A stretch of 64,000 nucleotides of DNA from a candidate division FCPU426 bacterium (GCA_963796105.1 CAWCKJ010000006.1:64001-128000), one strand, 5' to 3'; shown: positions 12,106-56,200, counted from the first letter of the stretch. Program-made: numbers and translations. Notes: generated by a model from the letters alone, not told the origin.

Positions 12106-12576
12106 ATGGAGAAAGCTACATTCGGAGCGGGGTGTTTTTGGGGCGTGGAGGAATTGTTCCGAAATTTAAAGGGCGTGTCATCTACGGCGGTTGGGTATGA
12201 AGGAGGCAAATTGAACCGGCCAACCTACCAGGCGGTTTGCACGGACCAAACCGGCCACGCTGAAGTCGTTGCAATCCAATTTGATCCTTCGGTTATTTCT
12301 TACGAGAGCCTTTTGGACGCCTTTTGGGAATGCCACGACCCAACCACCCTCAACCGCCAGGGGCCCGATTACGGCACCCAGTACAGGTCGGTCATCTTTT
12401 TCCATACCCCCGCTCAGGAAAAAACCGCCAAGGATTCCATGAAAAAATCAAGCCAATCCGGCAGGTTCAGGAACCCCATTGTTACCCAAATTGTTCCCGC
12501 CGAAACCTTTTGGCGGGCGGAAGAATACCACCAGCAATACCTGTTCAAACGGGGCTTGGGTAACTGCCATATCTAG
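12106..12576 (+). CDS. msrA: Peptide-methionine (S)-S-oxide reductase
   Basis: [18 protein letters not shown] and AEEYHQQY motifs. Confidence 0.97.
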
Positions 12577-12751
12577 CAGACTGCTGAAAAAATAAAAATA
12601 GGCCACAAAGCAGCCTGCGACCCCAAAGATTCCGCAGGCTTTGGTTTGAGGGTACATAGGGGATTTACCCTATGAGCGCTGTTGAATCGTGGGGTTTCCG
12701 CAAATGTCGTCAGCTGAAAAAGTCCGTTTGGGGGACTTTTTCAGCACCCTG
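12577..12751. mobile_element. 175-bp non-autonomous MITE-like element
   Basis: Terminal IRs cagactgctgaaaaa / tttttcagcaccctg, flanked by CTAG at 12573-12576 and 12752-12755; no ORF. Confidence 0.7.
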
Positions 12752-12874
12752 CTAGTTCCTGATAATGAAGATTAATTAGGTTGCATGCAAGAAGGGAATC
12801 TAAGCGTTCTGGACTGTAACACTTCGGTTGAAGCGTTACGGGAGACTTTGAATATTATTAATGAATAAAACAAA

Positions 12875-13889
12875 GGGGTCAGGCCATCATTCATCATTTT
12901 ACAAATAGTGTGAGTTGTTTACAATGCCCTAATGCCAAGGCCTAAACGGATCCATTACGAAGGGGCGGTTTACCATGTAACCTCGCGCGGTAATGAACGG
13001 CGAAAGATTGTTATGAATGACGCCGACCGCTGGATGTTTATTCGGTTATTGGGGGAAATGGTTGAAGAGAATGGTGTGTTATGTCACGCTTGGGTATTGA
13101 TGGATAATCATTACCATTTGATGCTGGAAACCCCAAGCGCGAATTTATCAGCAGCCATGAAACATTTAAACGCCCAATACACACAAAAATTCAATAAAAA
13201 GCATTATCGGAACGGGCATTTGTTCCAGGGGCGGTATAAGGCCATTATTGTGGAGAAAGACAGTTATTTAAAGGAATTAAGCCGGTATGTGGTATTGAAT
13301 CCGGTAAGGGCCCGGATGGTAAAACACCCCAAAGACTGGAAGTGGAGTAATTACCGGGCGACGGCGGGATTTGATAGGGCGGAAAAATGGCTGGAAGTGG
13401 ACTGGTTATTAGGGCAGTTTGGAAAGGAAAGAAAAAAGGCGCAAAAATCATACAGGACTTTTGTGGAAGAGGGGATGGGGAAGAAAGAAAAGCCTTGGGA
13501 TGATTTGTATTCGCGTATATACCTGGGTGGTAAGGAGTTTTTGGACAAGGTTCACGAAGTAGGGCAACGTCACAAACATTTGGATGTACCGAAATATCAG
13601 AAAAACGTGGTAAAGCAAGATCCGAAAGAAGTGCTGGAGAAAGTAGGAAGAATGTATGGTGAAAAAGCGGAGGAAATATTGAGGGCAGGCAAAAGGGAGT
13701 CGGAAGCCCGGGATATGGCGATATATTTATTAAAGAGAAAATCAGGAATGAGTTCCAAGGCGATAGGAATAAAGATGGGGGTGGGGGAAAGCGCGGTGGG
13801 AAACCGATTGATGAAGATCAAAAAAAGGTTGGCGGAAGACGAAAAGTTTGCACGAAAGCTGATAAAGTGATGAATGATGGCCTGACCCC
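12875..13889 (+). mobile_element. TIR-bounded element carrying a Y1/HUH (RAYT-like) transposase
   Basis: Perfect 22-bp inverted repeats ggggtcaggccatcattcatca at 12875-12896 and 13868-13889 enclose the gene. Confidence 0.8.
12932..13870 (+). CDS. REP-associated-type tyrosine (Y1, HUH) transposase with C-terminal HTH
   Basis: YHVTSRGN, LMDNHYHL (HUH), GHLFQGRYKA, YVVLNPVRA, WKWSNY; DnaA-C-like HTH tail. Confidence 0.9.
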   Translation: MPRPKRIHYEGAVYHVTSRGNERRKIVMNDADRWMFIRLLGEMVEENGVLCHAWVLMDNHYHLMLETPSANLSAAMKHLNAQYTQKFNKKHYRNGHLFQGRYKAIIVEKDSYLKELSRYVVLNPVRARMVKHPKDWKWSNYRATAGFDRAEKWLEVDWLLGQFGKERKKAQKSYRTFVEEGMGKKEKPWDDLYSRIYLGGKEFLDKVHEVGQRHKHLDVPKYQKNVVKQDPKEVLEKVGRMYGEKAEEILRAGKRESEARDMAIYLLKRKSGMSSKAIGIKMGVGESAVGNRLMKIKKRLAEDEKFARKLIK

Positions 13890-14360
13890 ATTGTTCATCT
13901 TCCGAAGGATTTTGAAAAAGCCAAGGTGGTGGGTGAAGTTCCTGAAACAGACCGGTTTGATTTAACCATTGGCCTTTCTATACGGAATAAAAAAGCTTTT
14001 GATCAGTATGATCAAGAACTGCACAGTATAAAAAACCCTCGAAAGCGCCATTATCTTACCCGTGATCAAGAAGAAAAGATGTTTTATCCGACCAAAAACA
14101 ATTATCAGGCCTTAATTGATTTATGCAAGTCGCACGGGCTGAAAATTAGAGGCACAGATCCTGATCGTCTTTTGTTGGCTGTAAATGGCACGATTAAAGA
14201 TATTCAAAAAATATTTCACATAAAGTTTCATAAATACCAGATGCCCAATGGTTTTGAATTCCGTTCGCCCGATCAGGAGCCATCAATCGATTTGGACGTA
14301 CCGATAGAACGTATAGATAGTCTCGGCGATTATTTTAGGGCAGTACCGGCTGAGAGGTAA
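13890..14360 (+). pseudogene. Stand-alone peptidase S53 (kumamolisin-type) pro/activation domain, 5' end abutting the transposase TIR
   Basis: Frame open from the TIR (IVHLPKDFEKAKVVGEVP...LTIGLSIRN...RHYLT...HGLKI...LLLAVNGTIKDIQKIF); no catalytic domain follows. Confidence 0.6.
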
Positions 14361-14385
14361 GAGCTTTTTTAACTGAGATTATTTG

Positions 14386-14422
14386 CCTGCACATGGCTGT
14401 CGCAAAAAGGATGGTGTGCAAC
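14386..14422. repeat. 37-bp direct repeat, copy 1 of 4
   Basis: CCTGCACATGGCTGTCGCAAAAAGGATGGTGTGCAAC. Confidence 0.97.
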
Positions 14423-14465
14423 GTCGTTAGCTGAAAAAGTCTGATTTGGAAACTTTTTCAACTAG
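14423..14465. mobile_element. Right-end remnant of the MITE at 12577-12751
   Basis: gtcgttagctgaaaaagtc...actttttca..ctag aligns with 12706-12755. Confidence 0.6.
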
Positions 14466-14494
14466 TTCGATTTAGCAGTAGGGAGGCGTATTAA

Positions 14495-14647
14495 GTGAAA
14501 TTTCTAAAAACGTTTAAACCAAACTGTTCATTCCAAAATGTCCTCAATGCTTTGCCCCTTTCCAGGAATAATAATCTTCAGGCATCACTTTCAATTACCG
14601 TTTTTACGCCCAGCACTCATTTGAAATTCTTTGGAGGCATTTCGTGA
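14495..14647 (+). CDS. Leader peptide 1 (50 aa, MKFLKTFKPNCSF...FGGIS)
   Basis: gggagg RBS; GTG start; stop overlaps the next start (GTGA); homologous to leaders 2 and 3. Confidence 0.7.
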   Translation: MKFLKTFKPNCSFQNVLNALPLSRNNNLQASLSITVFTPSTHLKFFGGIS

Positions 14648-15756
14648 AAAAAGAAAATAGAACCATTTTTTCAATGAGGTGGTTAAGAAAAGAGTTTGTT
14701 AGTGGGCTAACAACTATATTTCTTTTTAGTCTCGTTTTATCAATTGGTACTAAGACAGTTAATGCTCAAGACCATCCGGATCAAATAAAACATCCTTCTT
14801 TTTTTCAACCAGATGAAGAAGCAAAAAAAGTTTTTAATGATCGAATATATTTAGCCCAAAAGAAAGGCGAAAAAAGAAAGATAGTGGTATACGGCGAAGT
14901 CCATTTTGAAGAAAAATCTAAGGTTGAAACTAGCAAACTTTATTTTACCGATGGTCAAGGGAAAATCCTTAATACTTTTAATATTTACCCTAATTCTAAT
15001 GTTCATAACTGCCAAAGTGATATTCGCTTTTCGAAAAAATATCTTTCCATTCGAAGGACTTTTCGAGACGGAAAAAAAGAGGTGCTGGATGGTTTTGTGT
15101 TTAACAATGAAGGAACTGTTTTGTGGCATGTCCCAAAAGAAGATGTGTCCGGTTATATTTTCCCTTGTGATAAAACTGAAAGCGTGTTGACGATTGATGA
15201 TTGGAAAGGTCATTTAATAAATTACGATATTAATGGTGTCGAAAAGAATAATAAATACTTTTCCGATCAAAACGATGAAAAGTTTCCCGATTTGGCAACC
15301 CCAGATTCAGAGAATGCGGCAATTTGGGGAGGTTGCGCTTCTTCCGATGACGGCAATTATGTTGCCGTCGCTAGGTCGTCCAACGATATAAGGAATTTTC
15401 AAAATGAACTCACTTTGATTAATTCAACCGGGAAGGTTATATTCCAAAATAAAGATAATCAGTCACTTTTTAATTCTGTTTTGAAGGTTTATGAAGATCC
15501 TAATCTTATTGTTCTGTGGGGGAAAATTAAAGGAATGCCTTCGATGTTTAAACATGATGTAGGACATCATGAATATTTTGGATTTGATTTTACCGGAAAG
15601 TTGCTTTGGAAAGTTGATGGTGAAAAATATTATATCGATCCAACATTGATGAATTCCCGAATAGTTAGCCTGAGTGAAATTGACAACACAAATGGGAAAA
15701 CGCATTTACTGCAAAGTAATCTAACACTTAATGTCTCAACAGGGGAAATTAAGTAA
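14644..15756 (+). CDS. Exported protein, probable beta-propeller
   Basis: Signal peptide (VNA-Q); repeated G-x-x-L-W / DG..VAV blade-like motifs; AT-rich. Confidence 0.7.
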   Translation: MKKENRTIFSMRWLRKEFVSGLTTIFLFSLVLSIGTKTVNAQDHPDQIKHPSFFQPDEEAKKVFNDRIYLAQKKGEKRKIVVYGEVHFEEKSKVETSKLYFTDGQGKILNTFNIYPNSNVHNCQSDIRFSKKYLSIRRTFRDGKKEVLDGFVFNNEGTVLWHVPKEDVSGYIFPCDKTESVLTIDDWKGHLINYDINGVEKNNKYFSDQNDEKFPDLATPDSENAAIWGGCASSDDGNYVAVARSSNDIRNFQNELTLINSTGKVIFQNKDNQSLFNSVLKVYEDPNLIVLWGKIKGMPSMFKHDVGHHEYFGFDFTGKLLWKVDGEKYYIDPTLMNSRIVSLSEIDNTNGKTHLLQSNLTLNVSTGEIK

Positions 15757-15792
15757 TAAGTCCTTTTATAAATATTTTAGAAAGTTGATTAT

Positions 15793-16011
15793 ATGCTAAA
15801 AAAATACTTTTTTATTTTAGGTTTTTTTCTTTTTCCTTTTCTGGGTCATTCCCAAGAAATAACTTTTAGTTGGCCATTCCTAGATCCAGACGGAAATTTT
15901 CCATCTAAAGTTCAGCATATAATACGTCAAACCGTAGGTGCTTATCGTGGACCCCGAAATACTGCTACACCAGCAATAAGTGGGTCCCGTTTTCACCGAG
16001 GAGTGGATTTA
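15793..16011 (+). pseudogene. N-terminal fragment of a secreted M23-type metallopeptidase, cut at repeat 2
   Basis: Signal peptide, FSWPF, GAYR and FHRGVDL (HxxxD zinc motif); the second HxH motif is absent. Confidence 0.7.
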
Positions 16012-16048
16012 CCTGCACATGGCTGTCGCAAAAAGGATGGTGTGCAAC
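16012..16048. repeat. 37-bp direct repeat, copy 2 of 4
   Basis: Identical to copy 1. Confidence 0.97.
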
Positions 16049-16089
16049 CTCTCCTCCACCCACCAGTCAGTAGCAGGGAGGTGTATTAA

Positions 16090-16254
16090 ATGAAATTTCA
16101 CAAATCTTTTGAATCAAACTGTTCTTTCTGTTCGGCCTTTCAAGCTTTGCCCCTTTCCTGGAAAAATCATCGTTTAAACTTTTCCACATTTCCTAATTTG
16201 AAGACTTTGCCGAATACTGTTTACCATCAACCAACTTTCGGAGGAATTGAATGA
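16090..16254 (+). CDS. Leader peptide 2 (54 aa, MKFHKSFESNCSF...FGGIE)
   Basis: gggagg RBS; ATGA overlap with the gene at 16251. Confidence 0.7.
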   Translation: MKFHKSFESNCSFCSAFQALPLSWKNHRLNFSTFPNLKTLPNTVYHQPTFGGIE

Positions 16255-17222
16255 AAAAGGAAATCAAAAGCTATTTAGCCATTTTGCTTGCAACTTCGAT
16301 TTTAGGCTTTTTGTGTGCATCCTCCTTTTGTCAAGCTGCTACCGAATCAAAAATCTTTACTAAAAAAGAAATTTTATTTCTGAACTGGGGGAAGTCAAAT
16401 AACGAAGTCGGTTTGACAAAGAAAACGTTAAAGCCGTATCAAGGAGGCGGCATAAATTATTTTTATCCAACAGATTTTGGAATCGACGGAGAAGAAAATT
16501 TGTACATTCTTGATGCGCCTAACAACAAGATAAAAGTATTTTCTAAAAACGGTGATTTTATCAAGTCGTTTGACAATGAGTTGCCAAACATAAAAATGCT
16601 TGTGGGACAAGATGGAGAAGTTTATTTGCCGATCTACGCAGATAGTTTCAAAAAGCATTGGGTTTTACGGATCAAGAAAAATGGTGAGCAAATAAAGTAC
16701 ACAGGGGAATTGGGCGAGTATGTCGAAGGAAATACGATGTATCGCTGGGACGGGAAACCCGTAATGGTTTTTGAGGATAAAAAGAATAACGATTTTTCCA
16801 ATGAGCCTCCTCATTTATATCGGGAAAAGGATGTAACGCAAGATAATTTGCGCGAAAAGAAAATTTATATTAAAACAAAACAAATAAATAAATTTTTAAA
16901 CTTGAATGATAATCCGGATTTAGAACTGCCAATAGTCCAAAAGAAAAACATGTGGACTCACGGCCCCGAAGTCATCGGTGTAGATAAAAAGGGTAATATT
17001 TATCTTCACTACAACTTTGAATGGGCTCGTGCTTTGGTTGAGGAGGATTTGTATGTTTATTCCTCTCAAGGAAAATTAATTGGAAATATCCAGTTTTATG
17101 ACAAGCCCGCCACCCGAGAACATTACCGGGAAGATTTTATAAAAATTAGCAATGAAGGCAATGTTTATCAAATGTTAATCTTGGAAGATGGGGTTCATCT
17201 TTTCGAATGGCAAAAACAGTAA
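16251..17222 (+). CDS. Exported NHL-repeat / beta-propeller protein
   Basis: Signal peptide; YPTDFGIDGEENLYILDAPNNKIKVFSKNG NHL-like repeat; IGVDKKGNIY. Confidence 0.8.
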   Translation: MKKEIKSYLAILLATSILGFLCASSFCQAATESKIFTKKEILFLNWGKSNNEVGLTKKTLKPYQGGGINYFYPTDFGIDGEENLYILDAPNNKIKVFSKNGDFIKSFDNELPNIKMLVGQDGEVYLPIYADSFKKHWVLRIKKNGEQIKYTGELGEYVEGNTMYRWDGKPVMVFEDKKNNDFSNEPPHLYREKDVTQDNLREKKIYIKTKQINKFLNLNDNPDLELPIVQKKNMWTHGPEVIGVDKKGNIYLHYNFEWARALVEEDLYVYSSQGKLIGNIQFYDKPATREHYREDFIKISNEGNVYQMLILEDGVHLFEWQKQ

Positions 17223-17319
17223 AAAATATAAGCCGGTTTTTATTATTCACCACCATTTTTTTGGCACAAACTTGCCTACTTGTTCCACAAGCAAAAGCGG
17301 GGCCGTCTTCACTGCCGGT
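17207..17319 (+). pseudogene. 5' stub of a secreted-protein gene, cut at repeat 3
   Basis: MAKTVKNISRFLLFTTIFLAQTCLLVPQAKA-GPSSLP: complete Sec signal peptide with AxA site, overlapping the upstream stop. Confidence 0.6.
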
Positions 17320-17356
17320 CCTGCACATGGCTGTCGCAAAAAGGATGGTGTGCAAC
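17320..17356. repeat. 37-bp direct repeat, copy 3 of 4
   Basis: Identical to copy 1. Confidence 0.97.
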
Positions 17357-17464
17357 AAAATTAAAGTATTCTCATAATTTTTCTGGCAATTTTTTTAAAA
17401 CGTCTATTAACAGGTATTCAACCCTCTCCTCCACCCACCAGATAGCAGTAGGGAGGCATATTAA

Positions 17465-17584
17465 GTGAAATTTCTAAAAACGTTTAAATCAAAATGTTCA
17501 TTCCTATCAGCTCTTTCTGCTAATTTCAAACACGAAAGTTTAATCGAAAATCGTAATTCATTAAACATCGGAGGTTTGGAATGA
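17465..17584 (+). CDS. Leader peptide 3 (39 aa, MKFLKTFKSKCSF...IGGLE)
   Basis: gggagg RBS; GTG start; ATGA overlap with the ORF at 17581. Confidence 0.7.
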   Translation: MKFLKTFKSKCSFLSALSANFKHESLIENRNSLNIGGLE

Positions 17585-18657
17585 ATTCCTCTTCGTATAT
17601 ATCGAATATCCATAGGAGGTTATGCATGATAAAAGAAATTAAAAACGGAAATGAACTGAAATGGTTAACAAAAGAATTCAAAGGTGTACTTATTTCTGTT
17701 TATATAATTATTTCACCTTCTTTAACAAATTATCTATGGGGTGATACTTACACCCCAAAGGTGAAATATGAAAAAAAATATAAATTTGATTATAAATTCC
17801 ACATGGAAAAAGAAAATCCATCGTGTGTTTACATAATTGATTCAGGCAACGTTTACGAGCTTCATTACAAAAACCCTTATGTAGAGGTTTTCAATAACAA
17901 GGGAAACCCTTTACGGACTTTCAAATGCAACTGGAAGGGTGGCGAACCCAACGTTACTTATAGGCTATTGATGGATGATAAAGGGAATATGCTTGTCTAT
18001 ACACCATGGACCAACAACGCAAATAATTTCATCTTGGATAAAGATGGAAATTTATTAAAGACCTTTTTTTGTGGAGTAACTTGGCCTTGGAAAATCGGAT
18101 TTGAAAATGGTGTCGTTTATGACAAGGCAAATGGAATTGTATTAGGTGCTATTGACGAGAAACGGGGCGAAATTAAGCAAAAGATATTTTTTAAAGATAT
18201 TGACGATTTATATAACCCTCATGATTTACAGGAACCCCATCGTGGAGTAAAAATAAAAAAGCATATTAGACAAATAAAACTGCCGAAATATCTTCAACAA
18301 ATTGACGGTTCATATGTGGAAATCGAAAAAATCAAAGAAATGCCATTTGGGTTATATACAACTCCACCCAAAGGATTTGATGGAAAATTCAAATATGAAG
18401 AAATTATCGATATGGATGAGCAAGGTAACATTTATGCGAGATATGAAACGCCTCCGATTAGGATCGGCGATAAATACACAGGAAAAGTGAATCAAGCTTT
18501 CAAAATTTTCGTTTTTAATCCCAACTTTAAATTGTTGACTGTCCTAGATGCGAAAGATATTGGTTTTCCAGATCTTCCGACAAGAAATTTGTATGAATTA
18601 AAACCCGGACCAGAGCCGGGAGATATCAAGGTATATAAATGGGAAAAGATGCACTGA
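17581..18657 (+). CDS. Probable exported beta-propeller-like protein
   Basis: Blade-like motifs IDSGNVY, MDDKGNML, DMDEQGNIY; N-terminal hydrophobic stretch; alternative start at 17626. Confidence 0.7.
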   Translation: MNSSSYISNIHRRLCMIKEIKNGNELKWLTKEFKGVLISVYIIISPSLTNYLWGDTYTPKVKYEKKYKFDYKFHMEKENPSCVYIIDSGNVYELHYKNPYVEVFNNKGNPLRTFKCNWKGGEPNVTYRLLMDDKGNMLVYTPWTNNANNFILDKDGNLLKTFFCGVTWPWKIGFENGVVYDKANGIVLGAIDEKRGEIKQKIFFKDIDDLYNPHDLQEPHRGVKIKKHIRQIKLPKYLQQIDGSYVEIEKIKEMPFGLYTTPPKGFDGKFKYEEIIDMDEQGNIYARYETPPIRIGDKYTGKVNQAFKIFVFNPNFKLLTVLDAKDIGFPDLPTRNLYELKPGPEPGDIKVYKWEKMH

Positions 18658-18661
18658 GAAA

Positions 18662-18698
18662 CCTGCACATGGCTGTCGCAAAAAGGATGGTGTGCAAC
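18662..18698. repeat. 37-bp direct repeat, copy 4 of 4
   Basis: Identical to copy 1. Confidence 0.97.
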
Positions 18699-18781
18699 AG
18701 GAACAGTTTTTGGAGTGAGTTGCAAAATTGTAGTGTTTACCGGCGGAAATGCGGGTTTCCGGTGCATGTTCCTAGGCTCAA

Positions 18782-18900
18782 TAAAATCGAGGTTTTAACA
18801 GTCACCCCAAGTGTTAACACCAATAAAATTGCGGTGTTAACGGTCGCCCATAAGTGTTAACACCTGAAAAATTGCGGTGTTAACAGCAGGTGTTAACACC
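18782..18900. repeat. Cluster of six TTAAC / (G)TGTTAACA(C) palindromic sites
   Basis: TTAAC cores at 18795, 18814, 18837, 18857, 18880 and 18893; perfect GGTGTTAACACC at 18889-18900. Confidence 0.8.
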
Positions 18901-18948
18901 CTAATGTCGCCGGAAATGTGGGCGGGTTATCCTACCTGCCGACGGAAA

Positions 18949-19660
18949 CTCGAGTATCTTGGAACCTTGGAACTTTGGAACTGGCCTGGAACCACCGAAA
19001 TTCGAGAATCTTGAAACCTTGGAACTCTGGAACTCGCCTGGAACCACCGAAATTCGAGTATCTTGGAACCTTGGAACTTTGGAACTGGCCTGGAACCACC
19101 GAAGTTCGAGAATCTTGGAACCTTGGAACTCTGGAACGCGCCTGGAACCACCGAATTTCGAGAATCTTGGAACCTTGGAACTCTGGAACTCGCCTGGAAC
19201 CACGACACCCGGGAAACCTGGAACTCTGGAACTCCTGGAACCGGCCTGGAACCACGACACCCGGGAATCCTGGAACTCTGGAACTCCTGGAACCGGCCTG
19301 GAACCACGACACCCGGGAAACCTGGAACTCTGGAACTCCTGGAACCGGCCTGGAACCATGACACCCGGGAAACCTGGAACTCTGGAACTCCTGGAACCGG
19401 CCTGGAACCACGACACCCGGGAATCCTGGAACTCTGGAACTTCTGGAACCGGCCTGGAACCACGACACCCGGGAATCCTGGAACTCTGGAACTCCTGGAA
19501 CCGGCCTGGAACCACGACACCCGGGAATCCTGGAACTCTGGAACTTCTGGAACCGGCCTGGAACCACGACACCCGGGAAACCTGGAACTCTGGAACTCCT
19601 GGAACCGGCCTGGAACCACGACACCCGGGAAACCTGGAACTCTGGAAATCCTGGAACTGG
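18949..19660. repeat. 52-bp tandem satellite, ~13.6 copies, two subtypes, rich in TGGAAC
   Basis: Units at 18951, 19003, 19055, 19107, 19159 (type A), then 19201, 19253 onward (type B); resumes briefly at 22432 after IS21. Confidence 0.95.
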
Positions 19661-19823
19661 TGTCATTGGCCGCGAGCTTTAACCCCCTAGCTGGCCAAGC
19701 ACTTTGACCCCACCTCTGGCCAGTCACTTTGACCCCCTGTCTGGCCACCGACTTTGACCCCCTTGCCAAGGGCCTCTCTAACCGTCATTCCTTTCTTTTT
19801 TCACTTCATGTGAGGAGAACGGC

Positions 19824-21380
19824 ATGACCCGACAAGGGAGGCAGAGCGACATGGCGACTATTCGTGAGATTTTGAGGACTTACCAGGCCTTGGGCGGGTT
19901 CAAACCCACTGCCCGGGCCCTGGGATGCAATAAGCACACGGTCAAGCAATACGTGCGTTGGGCGAAAGAACATGGCTTTCTCCAAGGGGAACTTCCCCTG
20001 GAAAAGGATTTGGCGAAGGCTTGGGAAGACGGCGAAAAATCCACGCCCGTTCCCGCTCATGCCTTGGAGGCCCTCAAGGGAATCATCCAAGAATGGTTGA
20101 AGGAAGATTTCACCTTGATTCGCATCCAGGAGATGCTTCAAGAGCGGCACGGGTGGAAGGGGAGTTACTCGACCCTGAAGAGGTATACGGAGCCTTTTCG
20201 CAATGAGAAACCCGCCTACGTGAGGCTGGAGGTTGCGCCCGGCGAGGAGGCCCAAGTGGATTTCGGGCTTTTGGGCCGCTTGTGGGACGAGACGCGTGGC
20301 AAGCAAGCCAAGGCCTGGGTTTTCGTGATGACCCTTTCCCATTCCCGGCATATGTACGCCGAGATTGTATTCGCACAGGACGTGAGAACCTGGATCGCCT
20401 GCCACCGCCGGGCTTTCGAGTTCTTCAATTCAGTCCCTAAAAAAATCGTAATCGATAACCTGAAAAGCGCCATCGTCAAGGCGGCCCTCTATGATCCCTT
20501 GGCCAACCGTACCTACGTGGAATGCGCCAACCATTACGGCTTCATCATCTCCCCTTGCCGCGTCGCCACTCCACGCCACAAGGGTAAAGTTGAACGCGGC
20601 GTGCCCTATGTCCGTAATTCCTTCTTCAAGGGTCGTTCCTTCCAGGGCCGCACCGATGCCAACCATCAACTCCGCGATTGGGTGATGAACAAGGCAGGTT
20701 TACGGGATCATGGCACCACCCGGCTTCAACCCTTGGCCGTCTTCCAGAGCGTGGAACAGAAGGCCCTTTTGCCCCTGCCTACCGCGGCTTACCATCCAAC
20801 TTTCTTCAAAGAAGCCACTCTGCACCCCGATTGCCACGTAGTCGTGGAAGGTTCCTATTACTCGGCTCCCTACCGTCTTCGGGGCCAAAAACTACTGGCC
20901 CAATTAACCGACACCACCGTTGATATATTTCTCAAACACGAATGCGTGGCTTCCCACGCCAAGGCCACACGCAAGGGAACCTGGCGCACCAACCCGGGCC
21001 ACTATCCCCCTGAAAAAGCGGTCTTCTTGGAACGAACCCCACAATGGTGCCTCAAACAGGCCCAGGCCATTGGACCTAATACCCATCAATTAATCCAACT
21101 CCTGCTGGAACACTCCCACCCCCTGGACCACCTGCGCAAAGCCCAGGGCATCCTGCGCTTGAGGGAAAAGTACCTGCCTTCCCGCCTGGAGGCAGCCTGT
21201 CTAAGGGCCCTCCATTTCGGAAACTACACGTACCAATCCATCAAAAACATCCTTCAAAAGAACCTCGATCAAAACCCGTTGGAACCGCCGTCGGATCCTT
21301 CACTCAAACCCCAGTCGTCTTTCGATTTCGCCCGGCCCGCGGAGGATTTCCTCCGTGCCTTGGCTCTGGATAAAAATTGA
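19824..21380 (+). CDS. istA: IS21 DDE transposase
   Basis: PGEEAQVDFG, IVIDNLKSA, KGKVERGV, YSAPY; start may be 19851. Confidence 0.95.
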   Translation: MTRQGRQSDMATIREILRTYQALGGFKPTARALGCNKHTVKQYVRWAKEHGFLQGELPLEKDLAKAWEDGEKSTPVPAHALEALKGIIQEWLKEDFTLIRIQEMLQERHGWKGSYSTLKRYTEPFRNEKPAYVRLEVAPGEEAQVDFGLLGRLWDETRGKQAKAWVFVMTLSHSRHMYAEIVFAQDVRTWIACHRRAFEFFNSVPKKIVIDNLKSAIVKAALYDPLANRTYVECANHYGFIISPCRVATPRHKGKVERGVPYVRNSFFKGRSFQGRTDANHQLRDWVMNKAGLRDHGTTRLQPLAVFQSVEQKALLPLPTAAYHPTFFKEATLHPDCHVVVEGSYYSAPYRLRGQKLLAQLTDTTVDIFLKHECVASHAKATRKGTWRTNPGHYPPEKAVFLERTPQWCLKQAQAIGPNTHQLIQLLLEHSHPLDHLRKAQGILRLREKYLPSRLEAACLRALHFGNYTYQSIKNILQKNLDQNPLEPPSDPSLKPQSSFDFARPAEDFLRALALDKN

Positions 21381-21393
21381 GGAGGAAGCATAT

Positions 21394-22173
21394 ATGGAAA
21401 ATAAACATCAGTTGGAGCCGCACCTGAGAAGGTTAAAACTCGCAGGAATGTTGGAGACGCTGGAAATCCGAAACCAGCAGGCCATTGAATCCCAGATCGG
21501 TTATATGGATTTCCTGGGCCAGTTACTGTTGGATGAGCTGGAGCGCCGCCAAGTGGGCCAACTCCAAAGAAGGCTGAAAAAGGCGGGCTTCTCAACCCAT
21601 ATGACTCTAACGGGGTTCGATTTCGCCTTCAACCCGGCCATCAACCGGCAACAAATCCTGGATTTGGGTACTTGTTCTTTCGTGGAGCGAAAAGAGAACC
21701 TATTTTTCATCGGTCCCTCAGGTGTGGGCAAAACCCATTTGGCCTGCGCTTTGGCCCATGAAGTCTGCCGCAAGGGTTATGAGGTACTCTTTATCAAGAC
21801 CTCGCATGCGGCCCAACGATTAGCGGCCTCGCGCGGGGACGGTACCCGGGAAAACCGATTCGCATCCTTCCTGAAACCCGACCTCTTGATCCTGGACGAC
21901 TGGGGTCTCAAGCCCTTCGACACCAAGGTCGCCGAGGATTTTTACGACATCATCTGTGAGCGTTATGAAAAGGGCTCCTTGATTTTTACCACCAACCGCA
22001 GTCTGCGGGAGTGGCCGGAGCTTTTCGGCGACGCCCTCCTAGCCTCGGCTGCCATGGACCGCCTGGTCCACCATGCCACTGCCGTCGTCATTCAGGGCCC
22101 TTCCTTTCGGACCCGTTCCATGCGCGAAGAAATGAAAAAAGAACACAGCAGGGAAAAAGAGGCAAAACTATGA
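21394..22173 (+). CDS. istB: IS21 helper AAA+ ATPase
   Basis: GPSGVGKTHLA Walker A, LLILDDWG Walker B, MDRLVHH; ggagg RBS before ATG 21394. Confidence 0.95.
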   Translation: MENKHQLEPHLRRLKLAGMLETLEIRNQQAIESQIGYMDFLGQLLLDELERRQVGQLQRRLKKAGFSTHMTLTGFDFAFNPAINRQQILDLGTCSFVERKENLFFIGPSGVGKTHLACALAHEVCRKGYEVLFIKTSHAAQRLAASRGDGTRENRFASFLKPDLLILDDWGLKPFDTKVAEDFYDIICERYEKGSLIFTTNRSLREWPELFGDALLASAAMDRLVHHATAVVIQGPSFRTRSMREEMKKEHSREKEAKL

Positions 22174-22587
22174 GAAACCCATCGTTCGATGCTGTCTTAT
22201 TCGTGCAATCTTGCGCCTATTGGTTACGGGATTTGCGCGGGACTTCGTATCATCCAATGTTGGGGAAGCAAAACGCATCTTGTGAAAGGAGTTTGATGGG
22301 TCTAAATTAATCTAAAAAAGAGGCCCCGCAAGGCAGGGGTCGAAGTCCCCGAAACAGGCACCCCTCGAAGTGCCCAAAAGAGGGGGGGCAAAGTAGGCGG
22401 CCAGGGGGGTTAAAGTGGCTGGCCAGTGACAACTGGCCTGGAACCGTAGAAAACAGGGGATATTGGCTGACTCAAGAACAAATGAAGGGGTTTTATATGG
22501 CTCAAGGATTATCTGAAGTTTTGGAATGGTTGGGTCAGGTAGAGGTTATTAAAAACCAATTACAAAAGGATCCTCAATGCCCCAGGG

Positions 22588-22854
22588 CAAGCCGAGATAA
22601 CCTGGGAACAGCAGGACTTAAGCCGGGAACAAGCCGAGATAACCCGGGAACAGCAGGACTTAAGCCGGGAACAGGCTGAGATAATCCGGGAACAGCAGGA
22701 CTTAAGCCGGGAACAGGCGGGGATAACCTGGGAACAGGAAGACTTAAGCCAGGAACAGGCTGAGATAACCCGGGAATAGCTGGACTTAAGCCGGGAACAA
22801 GCCGAGATAACCCGGGAACAGCAGGACTTAAGCCGGGAACAGGCTGAGATAACC
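22588..22854. repeat. 42-bp (2x21) tandem repeat, ~6.4 copies
   Basis: caagccgagataacccgggaacagcaggacttaagccgggaa unit; one frame reads (EQAEITREQQDLSR)n with a TAG at 22777. Confidence 0.9.
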
Positions 22855-22970
22855 ACGGGAACTACTGGGGTGAATCGGCCTGATAAGCACTTTTGTTTTG
22901 GTTTATTCCCCGAATTGTTGGGTGTAGGCTTATAGGGCGATTAAGGATTTTTGAATAAAAGGATAAAGAT

Positions 22971-47298: not shown

Positions 47299-50200
47299 AT
47301 GCGTTTCCGAAAAACAGCATATTTTTTAATGTTTTTTTTCGTGTTTTTGACCCAAACACGCATTTTTGTTCACGCCGCCACTATCCAATCGGTTCAATCG
47401 GGAACTAACACCATTGCTGCGCCTAATTCTGCTATTACTGTGACGTTGCCACAGGCAGTGACTCCGAGCAATTCCTTTTTGATATTCAGCACATCCTCCA
47501 ATGGTCCAGCGCCAAACAATACCTTTGTAACAGGACAACTTGATGCCTCCAACGGTGCTGCATTGACATTTTCATGTGCAATTGCGCCTGGACCGGCGAC
47601 TCCCGTCTCAATCCAATGGTATGTGGCTCAGTTTACGCATGGAGTGACGGTCCAAAGGGGCTCGGTAGCTATGAATGGAACTACAGTTAATGTTCCTATA
47701 CCCACTGCCGTTGATTTATCGAAAAGTTTTCCAATTATCAGTTTAAAAACTTCTGATGCAACTTTTGGCGGTGGTGAATTCATTCAAGCGGCGATTAGTT
47801 CTACGACTAATCTCCAACTTTCCGCTAATAACATTCCAACAGCACCTTCCACCGTATCTTGGCAGGTCATCCAATTTGATAATGTAAGCGTCCAATATGG
47901 AACGATTTCACTTCCTGCAGGTGCCTTTAGCACGGACGTCCCTCTCTCCTCACCAATAATACCTTCCCAATCTTGGCTATTGTTTACTAATTCTACAAAT
48001 TTTGCTTCTAACGATATGAGGCAAAACCTTTTGCAGAGTTCGATCACGGGAGCTAATGACCTCTTGTTTACTAGAAATGGTTTCGGCATTACTTCCGTTC
48101 TTAACGTGAGTTGGTATGTTGTCCAATTTTCGGATGGAACCGCGGTTCAAAGTGGGACAGAAGCATTCCAGCCTACGGATTTGACCAATGGCGCTTTATT
48201 GCAGAGTATCGCTTTAAATCAAAGTATCGCCTCAGCGGGAGGACTTTATTACGGGGGCGGGGATGTATTAACCAACACTCAAACTAATCCGGAAGTGGCC
48301 ATGGGTTTGCTGGCGTTAACCAGTACTACAAACCTTCAGATTACAAGGGCTACTAACGGCGGTGGTGCCGGATGGGCGTCGAATTTTGGATGGAATGTTG
48401 TTCAATTTCCTTTAGCTACCGCCACTCCAACAAAAACATCCACATTTACTTCCACAAATACAAATACGAATACACCGACTCCAACTTTAACACCGACTCC
48501 CACCTTTACAAATACTCCAACGAACACGCCTACTTATACGCCAACTCAACCGGCAATATCGATCGGAGTGTGGACGCCGACCCCGGGAAACTCAACCCAA
48601 ATACCTGGGGCATCAAGCGTTCAAGAGATGAATTTGCAAGTAATCAATAACAGTAATGAAGGGGTGAGCTTGGACTATTTGGTGTTAAAGGCTACGGACC
48701 TAAGCGGCGCTAACTCTGGAACTGGAATTTACTCGGTAGATCTTTATAAGAGTGGGGAGCTGTTGGCAAGTTCGACCTATTCAGGTGCAAACGGGGTTGT
48801 AACTTTGGGTGGTTATCCATTAGACACTCTGACGGCAACAGGGTCGGCTGGAGCCACGGCAAATTACCAGGTGGAATATGATTTTTCGGCTGCCGCTCCT
48901 ACCGGAACATATCAAGGTATTATTACAGGAAATGCAAACTTGGTTGGGGCTGGGATTTCCTCACTACAACCGATTCTGGTGACTGGTGCTCCAATAAATG
49001 GGGCAACCATCACGATCGCGACACCAACCCTGACACCAACGCCGACAAATACGTCAACGAACACACCGACGGATACGCCGACGCCGACCTACACACCGAC
49101 TCCGACTGCTACTCCGACCTATACCCCCACAGACACACCCACATACACTCCAACAAACACGCCAACCAACACCCCGACCCCAACTCCCACGGATACTCCT
49201 ACTCCGACGCCCACGGATACCCCAACGCCGACGCCAACAGATACATCCACTGACACACCGACCCCGACCTTTACATCAACAAGTACGCCCACTCCGACGC
49301 CATATTTGTTGAGCGTGGCAACGGTGTCAGGGACGCCGCCGAACACGGTTCAGATCCCCGGAGCGCAAAACGTGGGGGTATTGCAGTTCAGCTTGAGCAA
49401 TCCTGGGACGTCGGCGGTGACCTTATACGGGCTGGTAATGCAGGCTGTGGGGAATGGGACGCAAGTGTCCGGGGTCAACCTGCTGGATGGGGGAGGGTTG
49501 ATACTGGAGAGCAAGGCATATAGCGCCGGGTACGTGACGTTGGGAGGAGCCCCGCTGACGGTTCTGGGGAGCGGAGTGGTGACTTTTGGAGTGAGTTATA
49601 ACTTCCAAACGACGGCGGCGACTGGGGATTATGGGGTGTCCTTGACGGGTGTCCGAGGAATAGATGACACGGGTCAGGTGGCTCAGGTTAGCGGGATACC
49701 GGTAGGTGGGGCAACCATCACGATTGCGACTCCAACCCCGACACCAACTCCGACCTACACATCGACGAATACACCGACGGATACGCCGACTCCGACATTC
49801 ACCCCAACGCCAACCGATACACCAACCTATACTCCCACAGACACACCCACATCCACTCCAACGAACACGCCAACCAACACTCCGACCCCAACTCCCACGA
49901 ATACACCAACCCTGACACCGACCAATACTCCTACGCCGACGCCAACTTATACCTCTACTGACACGCCGACGAACACCCCGACGGCGACGCCGACGCCGAC
50001 CTATACGCAGCAGGCTGTGCAGATAAGCAATGGAACGCCTGTAGTGGCCGGGGCGACGGTGATCCCTGGAGCGATGAGCGTGACGGTGATGAACCTGCAG
50101 GTACTCAACCAAAGCACGGAATCTGTGACGTTGAGTACGGTAACCTTGACGGCGTCGGGAAGCGGGAATGACGCTGGAGTGACGGTGAAGCTGTACAAGG

Positions 50201-53200
50201 GAACGACACCGTTGGCCATCGGGGTATATGGGACGGACAATGGCCAAGTGGTACTAGGATTTGGAAGTGATGTGGTAGGGGCTGGATTGACGCAGAATTA
50301 CCTGGTGACCTATGACTTCCCGATAGGGGCAAGCACAGGAACATACCAGGCTAGCGTGGCACAGAACACGGACTTGGCTGGGACAGGGGCATTCCGGGCA
50401 ATCCTGGTGAATGGGGCGCCGGTGACTGGGGCGGTTATCACGGTGGCCCTGCCGACGGCGACTTTTACTCCGACCTACACATCGACGAATACACCGACGG
50501 ATACGCCGACTCCGACATTCACCCCAACGCCAACCGATACACCAACCTATACTCCCACAGACACACCCACATCCACTCCAACGAACACGCCAACCAACAC
50601 TCCGACCCCAACTCCCACGAATACACCAACCCTGACACCGACCAATACTCCTACGCCGACGCCAACTTATACCTCTACTGACACGCCGACGAACACCCCG
50701 ACGGCGACGCCGACGCCGACCTATACGCAGCAGGCTGTGCAGATAAGCAATGGAACGCCTGTAGTGGCCGGGGCGACGGTGATCCCTGGAGCGATGAGCG
50801 TGACGGTGATGAACCTGCAGGTACTCAACCAAAGCACGGAATCTGTGACGTTGAGTACGGTAACCTTGACGGCGTCGGGAAGCGGGAATGACGCTGGAGT
50901 GACGGTGAAGCTGTACAAGGGAACGACACCGTTGGCCATCGGGGTATATGGGACGGACAATGGCCAAGTGGTACTAGGATTTGGAAGTGATGTGGTAGGG
51001 GCTGGATTGACGCAGAATTACCTGGTGACCTATGACTTCCCGATAGGGGCAAGCACAGGAACATACCAGGCTAGCGTGGCACAGAACACGGACTTGGCTG
51101 GGACAGGGGCATTCCGGGCAATCCTGGTGAATGGGGCGCCGGTGACTGGGGCGGTTATCACGGTGGCCCTGCCGACGGCGACTTTTACTCCGACCTACAC
51201 ATCGACGAATACACCGACGGATACGCCGACTCCGACATTCACCCCAACGCCAACCGATACACCAACCTATACTCCCACAGACACACCCACATCCACTCCA
51301 ACGAACACGCCAACCAACACTCCGACCCCAACTCCCACGAATACACCAACCCTGACACCGACCAATACTCCTACGCCGACGCCAACTTATACCTCTACTG
51401 ACACGCCGACGAACACCCCGACGGCGACGCCGACGCCGACCTATACGCAGCAGGCTGTGCAGATAAGCAATGGAACGCCTGTAGTGGCCGGGGCGACGGT
51501 GATCCCTGGAGCGATGAGCGTGACGGTGATGAACCTGCAGGTACTCAACCAAAGCACGGAATCTGTGACGTTGAGTACGGTAACCTTGACGGCGTCGGGA
51601 AGCGGGAATGACGCTGGAGTGACGGTGAAGCTGTACAAGGGAACGACACCGTTGGCCATCGGGGTATATGGGACGGACAATGGCCAAGTGGTACTAGGAT
51701 TTGGAAGTGATGTGGTAGGGGCTGGATTGACGCAGAATTACCTGGTGACCTATGACTTCCCGATAGGGGCAAGCACAGGAACATACCAGGCTAGCGTGGC
51801 ACAGAACACGGACTTGGCTGGGACAGGGGCATTCCGGGCAATCCTGGTGAATGGGGCGCCGGTGACTGGGGCGGTTATCACGGTGGCCCTGCCGACGGCG
51901 ACTTTTACTCCGACCTACACATCGACGAATACACCGACGGATACGCCGACTCCGACATTCACCCCAACGCCAACCGATACACCAACCTATACTCCCACAG
52001 ACACACCCACATCCACTCCAACGAACACGCCAACCAACACTCCGACCCCAACTCCCACGAATACACCAACCCTGACACCGACCAATACTCCTACGCCGAC
52101 GCCAACTTATACCTCTACTGACACGCCGACGAACACCCCGACGGCGACGCCGACGCCGACCTATACGCAGCAGGCTGTGCAGATAAGCAATGGAACGCCT
52201 GTAGTGGAAGGCATGACGGTGGCCCTGCCGACGGCGACTTTTACTCCGACCTACACATCGACGAATACACCGACGGATACGCCGACTCCGACATTCACCC
52301 CAACGCCAACCGATACACCAACCTATACTCCCACAGACACACCCACATCCACTCCAACGAACACGCCAACCAACACTCCGACCCCAACTCCCACGAATAC
52401 ACCAACCCTGACACCGACCAATACTCCTACGCCGACGCCAACTTATACCTCTACTGACACGCCGACGAACACCCCGACGGCGACGCCGACGCCGACCTAT
52501 ACGCAGCAGGCTGTGCAGATAAGCAATGGAACGCCTGTAGTGGCCGGGGCGACGGTGATCCCTGGAGCGATGAGCGTGACGGTGATGAACCTGCAGGTAC
52601 TCAACCAAAGCACGGAATCTGTGACGTTGAGTACGGTAACCTTGACGGCGTCGGGAAGCGGGAATGACGCTGGAGTGACGGTGAAGCTGTACAAGGGAAC
52701 GACACCGTTGGCCATCGGGGTATATGGGACGGACAATGGCCAAGTGGTACTAGGATTTGGAAGTGATGTGGTAGGGGCTGGATTGACGCAGAATTACCTG
52801 GTGACCTATGACTTCCCGATAGGGGCAAGCACAGGAACATACCAGGCTAGCGTGGCACAGAACACGGACTTGGCTGGGACAGGGGCATTCCGGGCAATCC
52901 TGGTGAATGGGGCGCCGGTGACTGGGGCGGTTATCACGGTGGCCCTGCCGACGGCGACTTTTACTCCGACCTACACATCGACGAATACACCGACGGATAC
53001 GCCGACTCCGACATTCACCCCAACGCCAACCGATACACCAACCTATACTCCCACAGACACACCCACATCCACTCCAACGAACACGCCAACCAACACTCCG
53101 ACCCCAACTCCCACGAATACACCAACCCTGACACCGACCAATACTCCTACGCCGACGCCAACTTATACCTCTACTGACACGCCGACGAACACCCCGACGG

Positions 53201-56200
53201 CGACGCCGACGCCGACCTATACGCAGCAGGCTGTGCAGATAAGCAATGGAACGCCTGTAGTGGCCGGGGCGACGGTGATCCCTGGAGCGATGAGCGTGAC
53301 GGTGATGAACCTGCAGGTACTCAACCAAAGCACGGAATCTGTGACGTTGAGTACGGTGACCTTGACGGCATCGGGAAACGGAATTGACGCTGGAGTGACG
53401 GTGAAGCTGTACAAGGGAGCGGCTCCGTTGGCCATCGGGGTATATGGGACGGACAATGGACAGGTGGTACTAGGATTTGGAAATGATGTGATTGGCGCGG
53501 GACTATCCCAGAATTACCTGGTGACCTATGACTTCCCGATAGGGGCAAGCACAGGGACATACCAGGCTAGCGTGGCACAGAACACGGACTTGGCTGGGAC
53601 AGGGGCATTCCGGGCAATCCTGGTGAATGGGGCGCCGGTGACTGGGGCGGTCATGACGGTGGCCCAACCGACAGCGACCTTTACGCCAACCTACACGTCA
53701 ACTAATACAACCACGAATACACCTACTCCAACACTCACCTTTACACCTACGAAAACTCCTACAAATACTTCCACGAACACACCCACTCCGACACCGACCT
53801 TCACTCCGACGAACACACCGACCTTTACACCCACATTTACTCCTACGAATACGCCGACGAACACCCCTACGGCCACCCCGACGCCGACCTATACGCAGCA
53901 GGCGGTGCAGATAAGCAATGGAACGCCTGTGGTGGCAGGTGCAACGGTGATTCCCGGGGCGATGGGAGTTACGGTGATGAACCTGCAGGTACTCAACCAA
54001 AGCGCGCAGTCGGTGACGTTGAGTACGGTGACCTTGACAGCGTCGGGAAGCGGAATTGACGCCGGGGTGACGGTGAAGCTTTATAAGGGAACGACGCCGT
54101 TGGCCATCGGGGTATATGGGACGGACAATGGACAGGTGGTACTAGGATTTGGAAATGATGTGATTGGCGCGGGACTATCCCAGAATTACCTGGTGACCTA
54201 TGACTTCCCGATAGGGGCAAGCACAGGGACATACCAGGCGAGCGTGGTACAGAACACGGACTTGGCTGGGGCGGGAGCTTTCCGGGCGATTCTGGTGAAC
54301 GGGGCGCCGGTGAATGGGGCGATTATGACAGTCGCCCTACCGACGGCGACCTTTACGGCGACAAATACGTCGACGAACACACCAACACCAACAAACACTT
54401 TTACGAGCACGCCCACTTACACTCCGACGAATACACCCACATCAACCCCGCCGGTTTTATTAGTGGCCACGGTGGTGGGAACACCCCCTAATTCAACACA
54501 AATTCCAGGGGCTACGGGAGTGCCGGTGTTGCAGTTCACGGTAAAAAACTCAAGCCCGGACGTGGTTAATATGGGTTCTATTGTGCTGGCGGTGGGAACT
54601 CCGACAGGAGGATCTGTTACGGAAATAACCCCGACTTTGTGGAAGGGAACGACGGTTATATTCAGCTCGGCCACTTGGTCTGGTGGAAACCTCACATTAA
54701 GTTTCAGCGACACACTGCCAGCCGGGCCCTCTTCTCAAACCTATCAAGTGACCTATAGTTTCTCGAATTCTTCTGCGACGGGGGCCTACTCAACTTCCTT
54801 GCAAACTTTGCAAGGAGTGGATAGCGTTTCGGGGCAGTCGGTGCAGGTGAGCGGGGTGCCGGCGGCTGGAGCGGTGATCACTATCGCCCTGCCCACAGCG
54901 ACCTTTACTTCAACATTTACGCCGACGAGCACACCCACTCATACACCGACCTTTACGCCGACCAACACGCCCACAAATACGTACACTCCCACGATGACCC
55001 CGACATCCACCCCATTGCCTCCTGTTCAGCTTGTGTTTTTAACGCCTTCTCCAGCATTGACTCCTTTTTCGGCAGGTTTAAACGGCGGCCCCCTCGTGAT
55101 CGAGGCGCAAAATTCCCAGGGGCAACCAGCCACCTTAACGGGAATCTTAACAATTAATCTATATTCTAATTCGACAGGTGAATATTATTTTCTGGATTCC
55201 TCGGGCGGCACAACCATATCCGCCTTGACCATTTCACCTGGATCCTCCGCGGCTACAATCAACTACCTGGATTATAAAGCCGGGGTTTGGGCTCTCACCG
55301 CCACATCCTCAACTTTGGCGCCGGCTGGTTTGCCTGTAACGGTATCGACGTCTACTTACGCCCAGCTTCAGGTGCTTTTGCCGGGCGAATCGGCTGATCC
55401 GGGAAAACCTTTATTGGATCCCTTAGGCCATACCGGCAGTCCTAGTAATGAACAAGCTGGTTATCCTTTTTCGGCCACAGTAAATGCCGTGGACGCTTAT
55501 TACAATGTTTTCACAGGTGCCGGCGATCCCTTGACCTTTACCGTTAGCGACCCTAATTCGCCCGCTCAAGGAGTCACCACCCTTAATCAAGGAACCGCCG
55601 TAAACAACAACATCGTGATGGATACGCCCAATAGCAGTCAGGCAGTTACGGTAAAGGATTTAAGCAACGCTAAAATTGGCGTTAGCGATCCTGTGTTCAT
55701 ATTGGCTGGAAGTCGAAGCCTCATCCTGAATGTGACCCACTATTCGCCTAAACTTTCCACTGTAACAGGAGGCCAGGCTGGTATCACCGTATTGGCCCTT
55801 GATTTCAGCGTGAAACAAGGCAGTGACCCCATATCCATCATGGGACTTGTCATCCACGCCGAGGACGATAAAAACAATCCGGTGCCATTCGGGACAGCTT
55901 TCCAAAATCTTTGGTATACCGGGGGTGGAGGCATAAATGGCTCAATGAATGTCGCCGGGTCCTCTTCTGATATGGTGACACTAGGAACTGCTCTTACGGT
56001 ACCTGCTTTGTCCTCGCTATCCGTCACCATTGGAGTAGATATGGCCCCTCAACCCACCGCCAAGAGCGTCAAGCTCTCATTGGATGGACCTGGGTCCTTT
56101 AACGCTGAAGATCCGGTCGCGCCAGCCACCGTGGCTGGGGTTACCACCATCGGCGACAGTACCGGATTCCCCATCCAATCGGAAACAATGGCTTTCCTTT

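Follow-up and report, generated by a model that had tools for sequence, protein, structure and literature searches.

An array of gene-sized inserts between CRISPR-type repeats in a candidate division FCPU426 bacterium, probably built from pieces of partner-gene operons by a Cas1–Cas2 lineage

Introduction

Two familiar systems string DNA pieces together at a fixed site. In CRISPR (short palindromic repeats, clustered and set at regular intervals), Cas1–Cas2 is understood as a ruler that writes memories of 30–40 bp; integrons work through an IntI integrase and attC sites. The subject here is an array, in the DNA of a candidate division FCPU426 bacterium, that holds gene-sized pieces between exact copies of a 37-bp repeat. 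The window, by which we mean the whole stretch analysed, is 64,000 nucleotides long (GCA_963796105.1 CAWCKJ010000006.1:64001-128000, one strand); unprefixed coordinates count from its first letter.

Other described systems come close in one respect or another. The nearest printed case found, going by the accessible part of its report, is the SiL-E1 pseudo-spacer of Sulfolobus islandicus LAL14/1, a foreign piece of ~2 kb flanked by perfect CRISPR repeats (PMC3718332). The rAID orphan-immunity arrays of Bacteroidales, as the available sections describe them, combine a tyrosine recombinase with whole-gene cassettes (PMC12247911). Polymorphic toxin systems, in the excerpts at hand, consist of a large secreted modular protein with an exchangeable enzymatic tip and a coupled small partner gene; orphan partner modules also occur (PMC3482391, PMC7073777). 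A literature search that reached few subscription papers found no relevant paper on long or giant Cas1–Cas2 spacers.

Gene-sized spacers in the window

Four exact copies of the 37-bp repeat lie in the window (14386..14422, 16012..16048, 17320..17356 and 18662..18698), against none in 100 shuffles. They enclose spacers of 1589, 1271 and 1305 bp (14423..16011, 16049..17319 and 17357..18661; 35, 37 and 33% GC). Repeats, spacers and the genes within them all run on the plus strand, and the three spacers have a leader in common. Each spacer consists of this shared leader, one intact gene of 323–370 aa, here called A, and the start of an open reading frame (ORF), here called B, that runs into the repeat.

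Spacer 1 begins in the remnant of a miniature inverted-repeat transposable element (MITE): its first 38–46 bp are 80–87% like a MITE end with eight other matches in the genome. Leader and gene A1 follow (14644..15756; 370 aa, signal-peptide-like N-terminus), and then stub B1 (15793..16011), the first 73 codons of an M23-tipped secreted protein; it reads ...FHRGVDL and is cut after its HxxxD motif, with the repeat directly after it. Spacer 2 begins in the middle of the leader, exactly 67 bp deeper than spacer 3; its gene A2 (16251..17222; 323 aa) encodes a predicted secreted beta-propeller, and stub B2 (17207..17319), whose ATG at 17207 lies in a 16-nt overlap with the end of A2, supplies a signal peptide and a few residues, 37 codons plus 2 nt in all, before the repeat. 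Spacer 3 begins between the putative −35 and −10 boxes of the donor; its gene A3 (17626..18657; 343–358 aa by the start chosen) is a distant relative of A2 (hidden Markov model (HMM) E 1e-7), and its possible stub B3 (18639..18661) has only 7 codons plus 2 nt, an N codon straddling the repeat junction. Pfam and NCBIfam scans place A1 in no family and give A2 and A3 only weak NHL-propeller matches. The leaders of spacers 1 and 2 also contain a small upstream ORF of 50–54 codons (14495-14647 and 16090-16254), conserved and coupled to A; it is broken in spacer 3.

The original prediction, made from the window alone, had described the ends of spacers 1 and 2 in just these terms, as an M23-like secreted peptidase and a signal peptide severed at the repeat, and both descriptions hold. 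Its ragged 5' ends are likewise real, in the MITE start of spacer 1 and in the 67-bp offset between spacers 2 and 3; the leader hairpin it had invoked folds no better than shuffled sequence (z −0.36 and +0.85).

The repeat and its Cas1–Cas2

The source genome holds 14 copies of the 37-mer in seven clusters, with one orientation inside each cluster. At one cluster, on contig C5, the repeat stands 22 bp behind a cas1 gene (TIGR00287, E 2e-74, above cut-off) and a 111-aa gene with a Cas2 fold. The catalytic E-H-E motifs of this Cas1 are kept in eight of eight aligned sequences. All ten homologues of the 111-aa gene match PF09827 (Cas2), each below the cut-off, and a model of it with a predicted local distance difference test score (pLDDT) of 75 matches Cas2 structures at E 3e-5; the single-sequence fold (pLDDT 39) was unusable. 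Neither an effector nor Cas4 was seen at this locus. A broken cas1 precedes the repeat copy at C4:1.34M, and the end of a cas2 precedes the copy on C3.

The association extends beyond this genome. A related 37-mer lies near 15 of 15 loci of cas1 homologues (13 found by script, two by eye; four of these loci come from one assembly), in at least two copies at eight of them, and a degenerate form of the repeat pattern is matched in 6 of 61 relatives. The cas1 genes at repeat-bearing loci appear effector-less and are nearly always accompanied by cas2; a check by eye of the window region and of 5 kb around each of the six other clusters, which was not extended to an effector HMM scan of all loci, turned up no effector-like ORF. 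Inverted repeat pairs 110–145 bp apart occur at the array ends at L116:6253-6470 and G025:C3:400723-400905.

The source genome (G000) also has three ordinary CRISPR arrays (C2:354-367k, C6:309-317k and C16:42.9-46.2k), with other repeats and spacers of 32–38 bp; the C6 locus carries a 1299-aa gene and a 614-aa Cas4–Cas1-like gene. These other systems might act on the 37-mer in trans. None of the 104 ordinary spacers extracted from this genome, which include only four of the C6 array, matches the long pieces.

Inter-repeat pieces in other loci

The 68 inter-repeat pieces of less than 13 kb taken from the fetched loci, a subset of all arrays, have a median length of 1288 bp and range from 30 to 12,145 bp, with four under 100 bp. 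The shared PAM-like (protospacer-adjacent) flank and the length constraint that the original prediction had proposed looking for did not appear: piece lengths are unconstrained, and nine 5' and nine 3' donor flanks (some from paralogues 88–95% identical) contain no repeat remnant and, by eye, no shared motif. The spacer ends are clean-cut, and no motif was found inside them. Several pieces overlap one another with different ends; an 885-bp piece is nested at 100% identity, in opposite orientation, in a 971-bp piece of another genome, and one piece is a cut cas1(104-346)–cas2 itself. Where cas1–cas2 is the spacer (L017:9969-11123 and L101, one cut at codon 104), the piece ends exactly at the leader–repeat junction; the module may copy itself.

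Two other kinds of cargo may be recorded here. Several spacers (L009:5874-9365, L104:12594-15786, L105, L100:2340-3135, L137) begin within an Rhs gene, of which they keep the C-terminal end together with the small gene downstream, one with a phage-lysozyme tip; we read them as a second toxin–immunity type of cargo. Six kilobases of metal-transport genes, 99.4% identical between two genera, lie inside a spacer in one (L107:5051-11120) and free of the repeat in the other (G000:C16:9752-15822).

Donor operons

What is new in this analysis is the donor operons of the spacers, known through paralogues in which leader, A and B stand together with no repeat. In genome G010, a 2,525-aa protein with both M23 motifs and Kelch/NHL propellers begins 13 bp behind a homologue of A1 (34%); stub B1 is 47% identical over 73 aa to the start of this protein. 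A protein search with the stub among longer proteins had found no match; the genome search revealed the G010 homologue.

The A2 family has 13 loci, in 9 of 99 genomes of the phylum, all from one family. Behind A there is a B of more than 1000 aa at three loci, a B stub at six (two at a repeat, four without one), nothing at three and another A at one. At eight of the 13, B starts at an ATG within the last Trp codon of A, with the 16-nt overlap seen in the window. Stub B2 aligns, weakly over its 37 aa, with the N-termini of these B proteins, whose tips are SpoIID-like where they are long enough (PDB 4RWR, E 2e-11); stub 2 is likely the start of a SpoIID-tipped giant secreted protein. In another genus (G016), an A2 gene with a 191-aa SpoIID stub is cut by a related repeat, and a full A–B operon stands behind it. 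A 151-bp contig of depth 2, from one DNA run, joins an A2-like C-terminus at a related repeat to the G016 post-repeat sequence; this is a weak hint, which we do not count as evidence.

The stubs of spacers 1 and 2 are thus pieces of longer genes and not natural short ORFs, on account of the 47% match and the same overlap, and the 37-mer is no part of the donor operons, with no match in 14 loci scanned and none in the same-genus genome G001. The claim that every spacer ends in an amputated B lacks support at spacer 3, as none of three A3 homologues has a long ORF from the corresponding ATG. The derivation from paralogous leader–A–B operons, with B lost, is mostly borne out: repeat-free operons in which B continues do exist, although the loss of B is not peculiar to the repeat.

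The native leader is ~370 bp long, with a −35/−10-like pair in four of four copies; three repeat-free copies are in G001. A random chromosomal origin of three spacers that all start in a leader has a probability of ~1e-13 to 1e-15, and chance capture from this chromosome is excluded (~1e-13 or less). As spacer 3 takes in the putative −10 box, an origin from RNA was rejected for it. A family of small secreted proteins (115–145 aa) is encoded divergently upstream of many A–B operons (L079:14103, L081:12879, L083:14524, L085:6324, L088:2510, L146:7146).

Partners and tips

The B proteins have in common a propeller stalk (Kelch/NHL), several with a weak FlgD/CHU_C match at the C-terminus, and vary at the N-terminal tip, which is M23, SpoIID, GH18 or a tip without a name. 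Composition follows the same division: in seven of seven operons A (32–40% GC) and the first 1.2 kb of B (39–48%) are AT-rich, and GC along the body of B rises to 50–62% in six and to about 50% in the seventh. Each kind of tip tends to have its own kind of partner. An A2-like gene is upstream of nine of ten SpoIID tips, an insertion sequence (IS) occupying that place in the tenth; M23 goes with A1 in one clear pair, GH18 with an Fn3-like A in two (35%), and two unnamed tips (39%) with an A family of their own (24%). The A proteins have a signal-peptide-like start and no sorting tail. In all operons examined the tip is N-terminal and the partner upstream, which is not the arrangement of a C-terminal toxin with a downstream gene.

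Four tip classes, each with its own A family, suggest a toxin/immunity-like pattern. Judged by their sequences, the B tips are predicted to attack cell walls, and the pairs may each consist of a toxin tip open to exchange and a matching inhibitor in the periplasm, in mirror image of the described systems. The donor operons are candidates for a new class of polymorphic lytic proteins, in which the tip is N-terminal and the partner is encoded upstream.

Surroundings of the array

The array sits in an insert of 10.3 kb, from 12570 to 22890, recognized as such because msrA is joined straight to the HAD gene in G001. Its left edge is a MITE (12573..12760, no strand assigned; 40 blastn hits in the genome). 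An element with a repetitive extragenic palindrome (REP)-associated tyrosine transposase follows (12869..13895, plus strand; ORF 12932-13870, 33-bp inverted ends, NF047646 above cut-off); with about eight near-full copies in G000, 98% identical, it behaves like an active IS. Next to it is the remnant of an earlier captured piece (13896..14385, plus strand), a kumamolisin pro-domain gene (PF09286, E 1e-18) whose 5' end was cut by the transposase element, and it is likely that this element removed the upstream part of the array. An IS21-family element (istA, istB; 19661..22431, plus strand) is in the same insert, outside the array. Tandem arrays of 52-bp and 21-bp units, of kinds scattered through the genome, and a gene built of tandem 720-bp units are found at 18942-19660, 22546-22880 and 48970-54400.

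How the array was built, and why A is kept

The explanation we favour, and consider fairly probable as a whole, is that pieces bearing A were inserted by an effector-less, ruler-less Cas1–Cas2 and were kept since A would neutralise the cell-wall-lytic B tips of competitors. Its two parts are not equally secure. That Cas1–Cas2 captured the pieces is very probable; that A, once so captured, was retained by selection as an immunity-type gene is a nearly balanced question, which we lean towards answering yes. Mechanistically, a long fragment would be joined to the repeat at each of its two ends by Cas1–Cas2, and the repeat would be duplicated; end joining and repeat duplication are taken here from the canonical chemistry of adaptation. 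Cuts would be blind to sequence, and the common anatomy of the spacers would come from selection, with B acting as a lytic protein against bacteria and A as the protein that gives immunity to it; a promoter lying upstream would drive the promoterless cassettes. No separate mechanism has to be sought for the stub. Since B overlaps or adjoins the stop of A, a piece of ~1.3 kb that keeps a 1-kb A whole has to begin within the leader and to finish at B or inside it, and the stub follows automatically. What calls for explanation is the recurrent intact A.

Several observations weigh against this account. The window has no cas gene, its link to Cas1–Cas2 being the identical repeat on other contigs, and the C5 Cas2 is without the acidic residue that is canonical in strand 1. 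Searches with blastn of the source genome and 31 genomes of the family for the exact donors of the three spacers returned nothing beyond leader paralogues and repeats. The donor's putative −35 box lies upstream of the start of each spacer and is missing from all three, which counts against selection because selection for self-driven expression would have kept that box, and a promoter and terminator scan found promoter-like sites in the region at chance level (17 versus 17.3). At eight of the 13 A2-family loci B is missing or truncated although no repeat is there, and the A of the M23 operon at L089 fails to match A1. In relatives the cargo (87 ORFs scanned) is mostly miscellaneous accessory DNA, such as IS, glycosyltransferases, outer-membrane proteins and Rhs ends; genes of the A1, A2 or A3 families are in only four of the 68 pieces, three of these being the window array. 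The main coding strand of the 59 pieces longer than 300 bp is that of the repeat in 38, neither in three, and the opposite one in 18. Finally, kin loci are not independent of one another.

Some of these points would suit a neutral version of the same Cas1–Cas2 capture, in which A has no selected role and either breaks are concentrated in the leader or a single donor island, with A–B operons in tandem, supplied all three pieces. Either origin is possible in itself; as the full explanation we think it unlikely, though it deserves real weight. The leader is an AT-rich promoter and untranslated region, often hit by the REP-associated transposase, and the three 5' ends are confined to a stretch of ~110 bp in it that runs from the −35 box to the first ribosome site; the transposase element is found beside leader-led operons (C3:194k, C3:664k, G001 and L083), native islands hold several A–B operons in tandem (L048, L084, L146), and the cassettes are promoterless. 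Yet the three A genes, unrelated or only distantly related, are all intact, with 4–255 bp between their stop and the spacer end. Moreover, a spacer at L013 is nearly exactly one intact A3-family gene (margins of 22 and 26 bp), cut 22 bp before the gene start and outside any window-type leader, and A outlives B at repeat-free loci too.

A second alternative accepts both capture and selection and changes the function: A would be a chaperone, a secretion aid or an adhesin partner, and the B tips would remodel the cell's own wall or degrade polymers. Domains of the SpoIID, M23 and GH18 kinds have housekeeping or nutritional uses as well, and housekeeping SpoIID genes are present in 31 of 31 genomes of the family. 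A dedicated helper would be useless in the absence of B, but at 10 of the 13 A2-family loci A is retained although no full B accompanies it; nor would a helper role fit an AT-rich unit of A plus tip swapped on a conserved stalk. The upstream position of A, in contrast to the downstream partner in polymorphic toxin pairs as far as the accessible text describes them (PMC7073777), does speak for a helper, a function we nevertheless regard as improbable.

More doubtful still is a reading of the 37-mer as a small mobile or recombination site of MITE or REP type, moved by the neighbouring transposase into a native island, with deletions between copies, the Cas1–Cas2 being incidental. Many copies of the repeat do stand alone, at a distance from cas genes, and the transposase element adjoins three repeat clusters (C6, C4:1.338M and C4:1.472M). 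At the last of these (C4:1471836), though, it cuts into the repeat; the genomic clusters show neither half-sites nor target duplications of the 37-mer; the sequence after a repeat never resumes the gene cut ahead of it, and the source genome lacks the remainder of B1; and the repeat diverges together with cas1, keeping a fixed position behind cas2. Tandem duplication of one cassette, or an assembly artefact, would account for the shared leader and similar unit length, but is scarcely credible and is refuted by the unique cargo and by other genomes: the repeats are 100% identical whereas the leaders are 76–95% alike and the cargo genes unalignable, and the same architecture recurs in independent genomes.

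Capture by Cas1–Cas2 with A kept as an immunity gene can be carried one step further. A ruler-less, CRISPR-derived Cas1–Cas2 might build gene-sized arrays as an adaptive memory for interbacterial warfare, capturing the immunity genes of a class of polymorphic toxins not described before (N-terminally tipped, lytic to cell walls and exported by a type IX secretion system (T9SS)-type route) and dropping the toxin; we offer this tentatively, as an idea with somewhat less than an even chance of being right. A Cas1–Cas2 lineage that writes kilobase pieces would amount to a site-specific integrase, natural and PAM-free, able to handle DNA of gene size, and would open another way for genes to be acquired. 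The window array suggests what the system may be for, its cargo being traceable to defined donor operons; and the consistent bias of that cargo, partner gene kept and lytic protein cut, makes both integrase and function directly testable.

Comparison with known systems

The machinery is that of a CRISPR adaptation module: a Cas1 above the TIGR00287 cut-off, a Cas2 fold, exact repeats around unique inserts, and a 37-bp, weakly palindromic repeat right behind cas2 at C5 and homologous loci. It departs from such a module in spacers of 30 bp to 12 kb, a leader of about 20 bp at the repeat, flanks without a PAM-like motif and an atypical Cas2. The near-constant short spacers of CRISPR–Cas (about 20–50 bp) are not what is found here, where the median is above a kilobase. 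SiL-E1, in the part of its report available, is a single exception in an otherwise ordinary array, put down to faulty processing or to recombination (PMC3718332), whereas in the present case a whole Cas1 lineage has long inserts as a rule.

With polymorphic toxins, so far as the excerpts on them go, the donor operons share variable enzymatic tips (M23, SpoIID, GH18, unnamed) on a conserved secreted Kelch/NHL scaffold; they differ in the N-terminal tip, the upstream partner and the T9SS-type C-terminal domain.

In output the nearer parallels are the cassette systems. Like rAID arrays, as the available sections present them, this is a co-oriented array of partner genes without toxins, with conserved intergenic motifs (here the shared leader); unlike them, it has Cas1–Cas2, CRISPR-type repeats, ragged ends and a putative immunity cargo recognized by genomic pairing. 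A Pfam scan of 14 window proteins found no tyrosine recombinase; the gene upstream of the array is a Y1 transposase. As in integrons, promoterless cargo is stacked in one orientation behind an integration site; in contrast to integrons, the repeat is an invariant 37 bp, cargo ends cut through genes, and the same scan of 14 proteins, with no attC model run, gave no match to an IntI-type integrase. The array thus resembles CRISPR adaptation in its machinery and rAID arrays or integrons in its output, and fails a defining feature of each.

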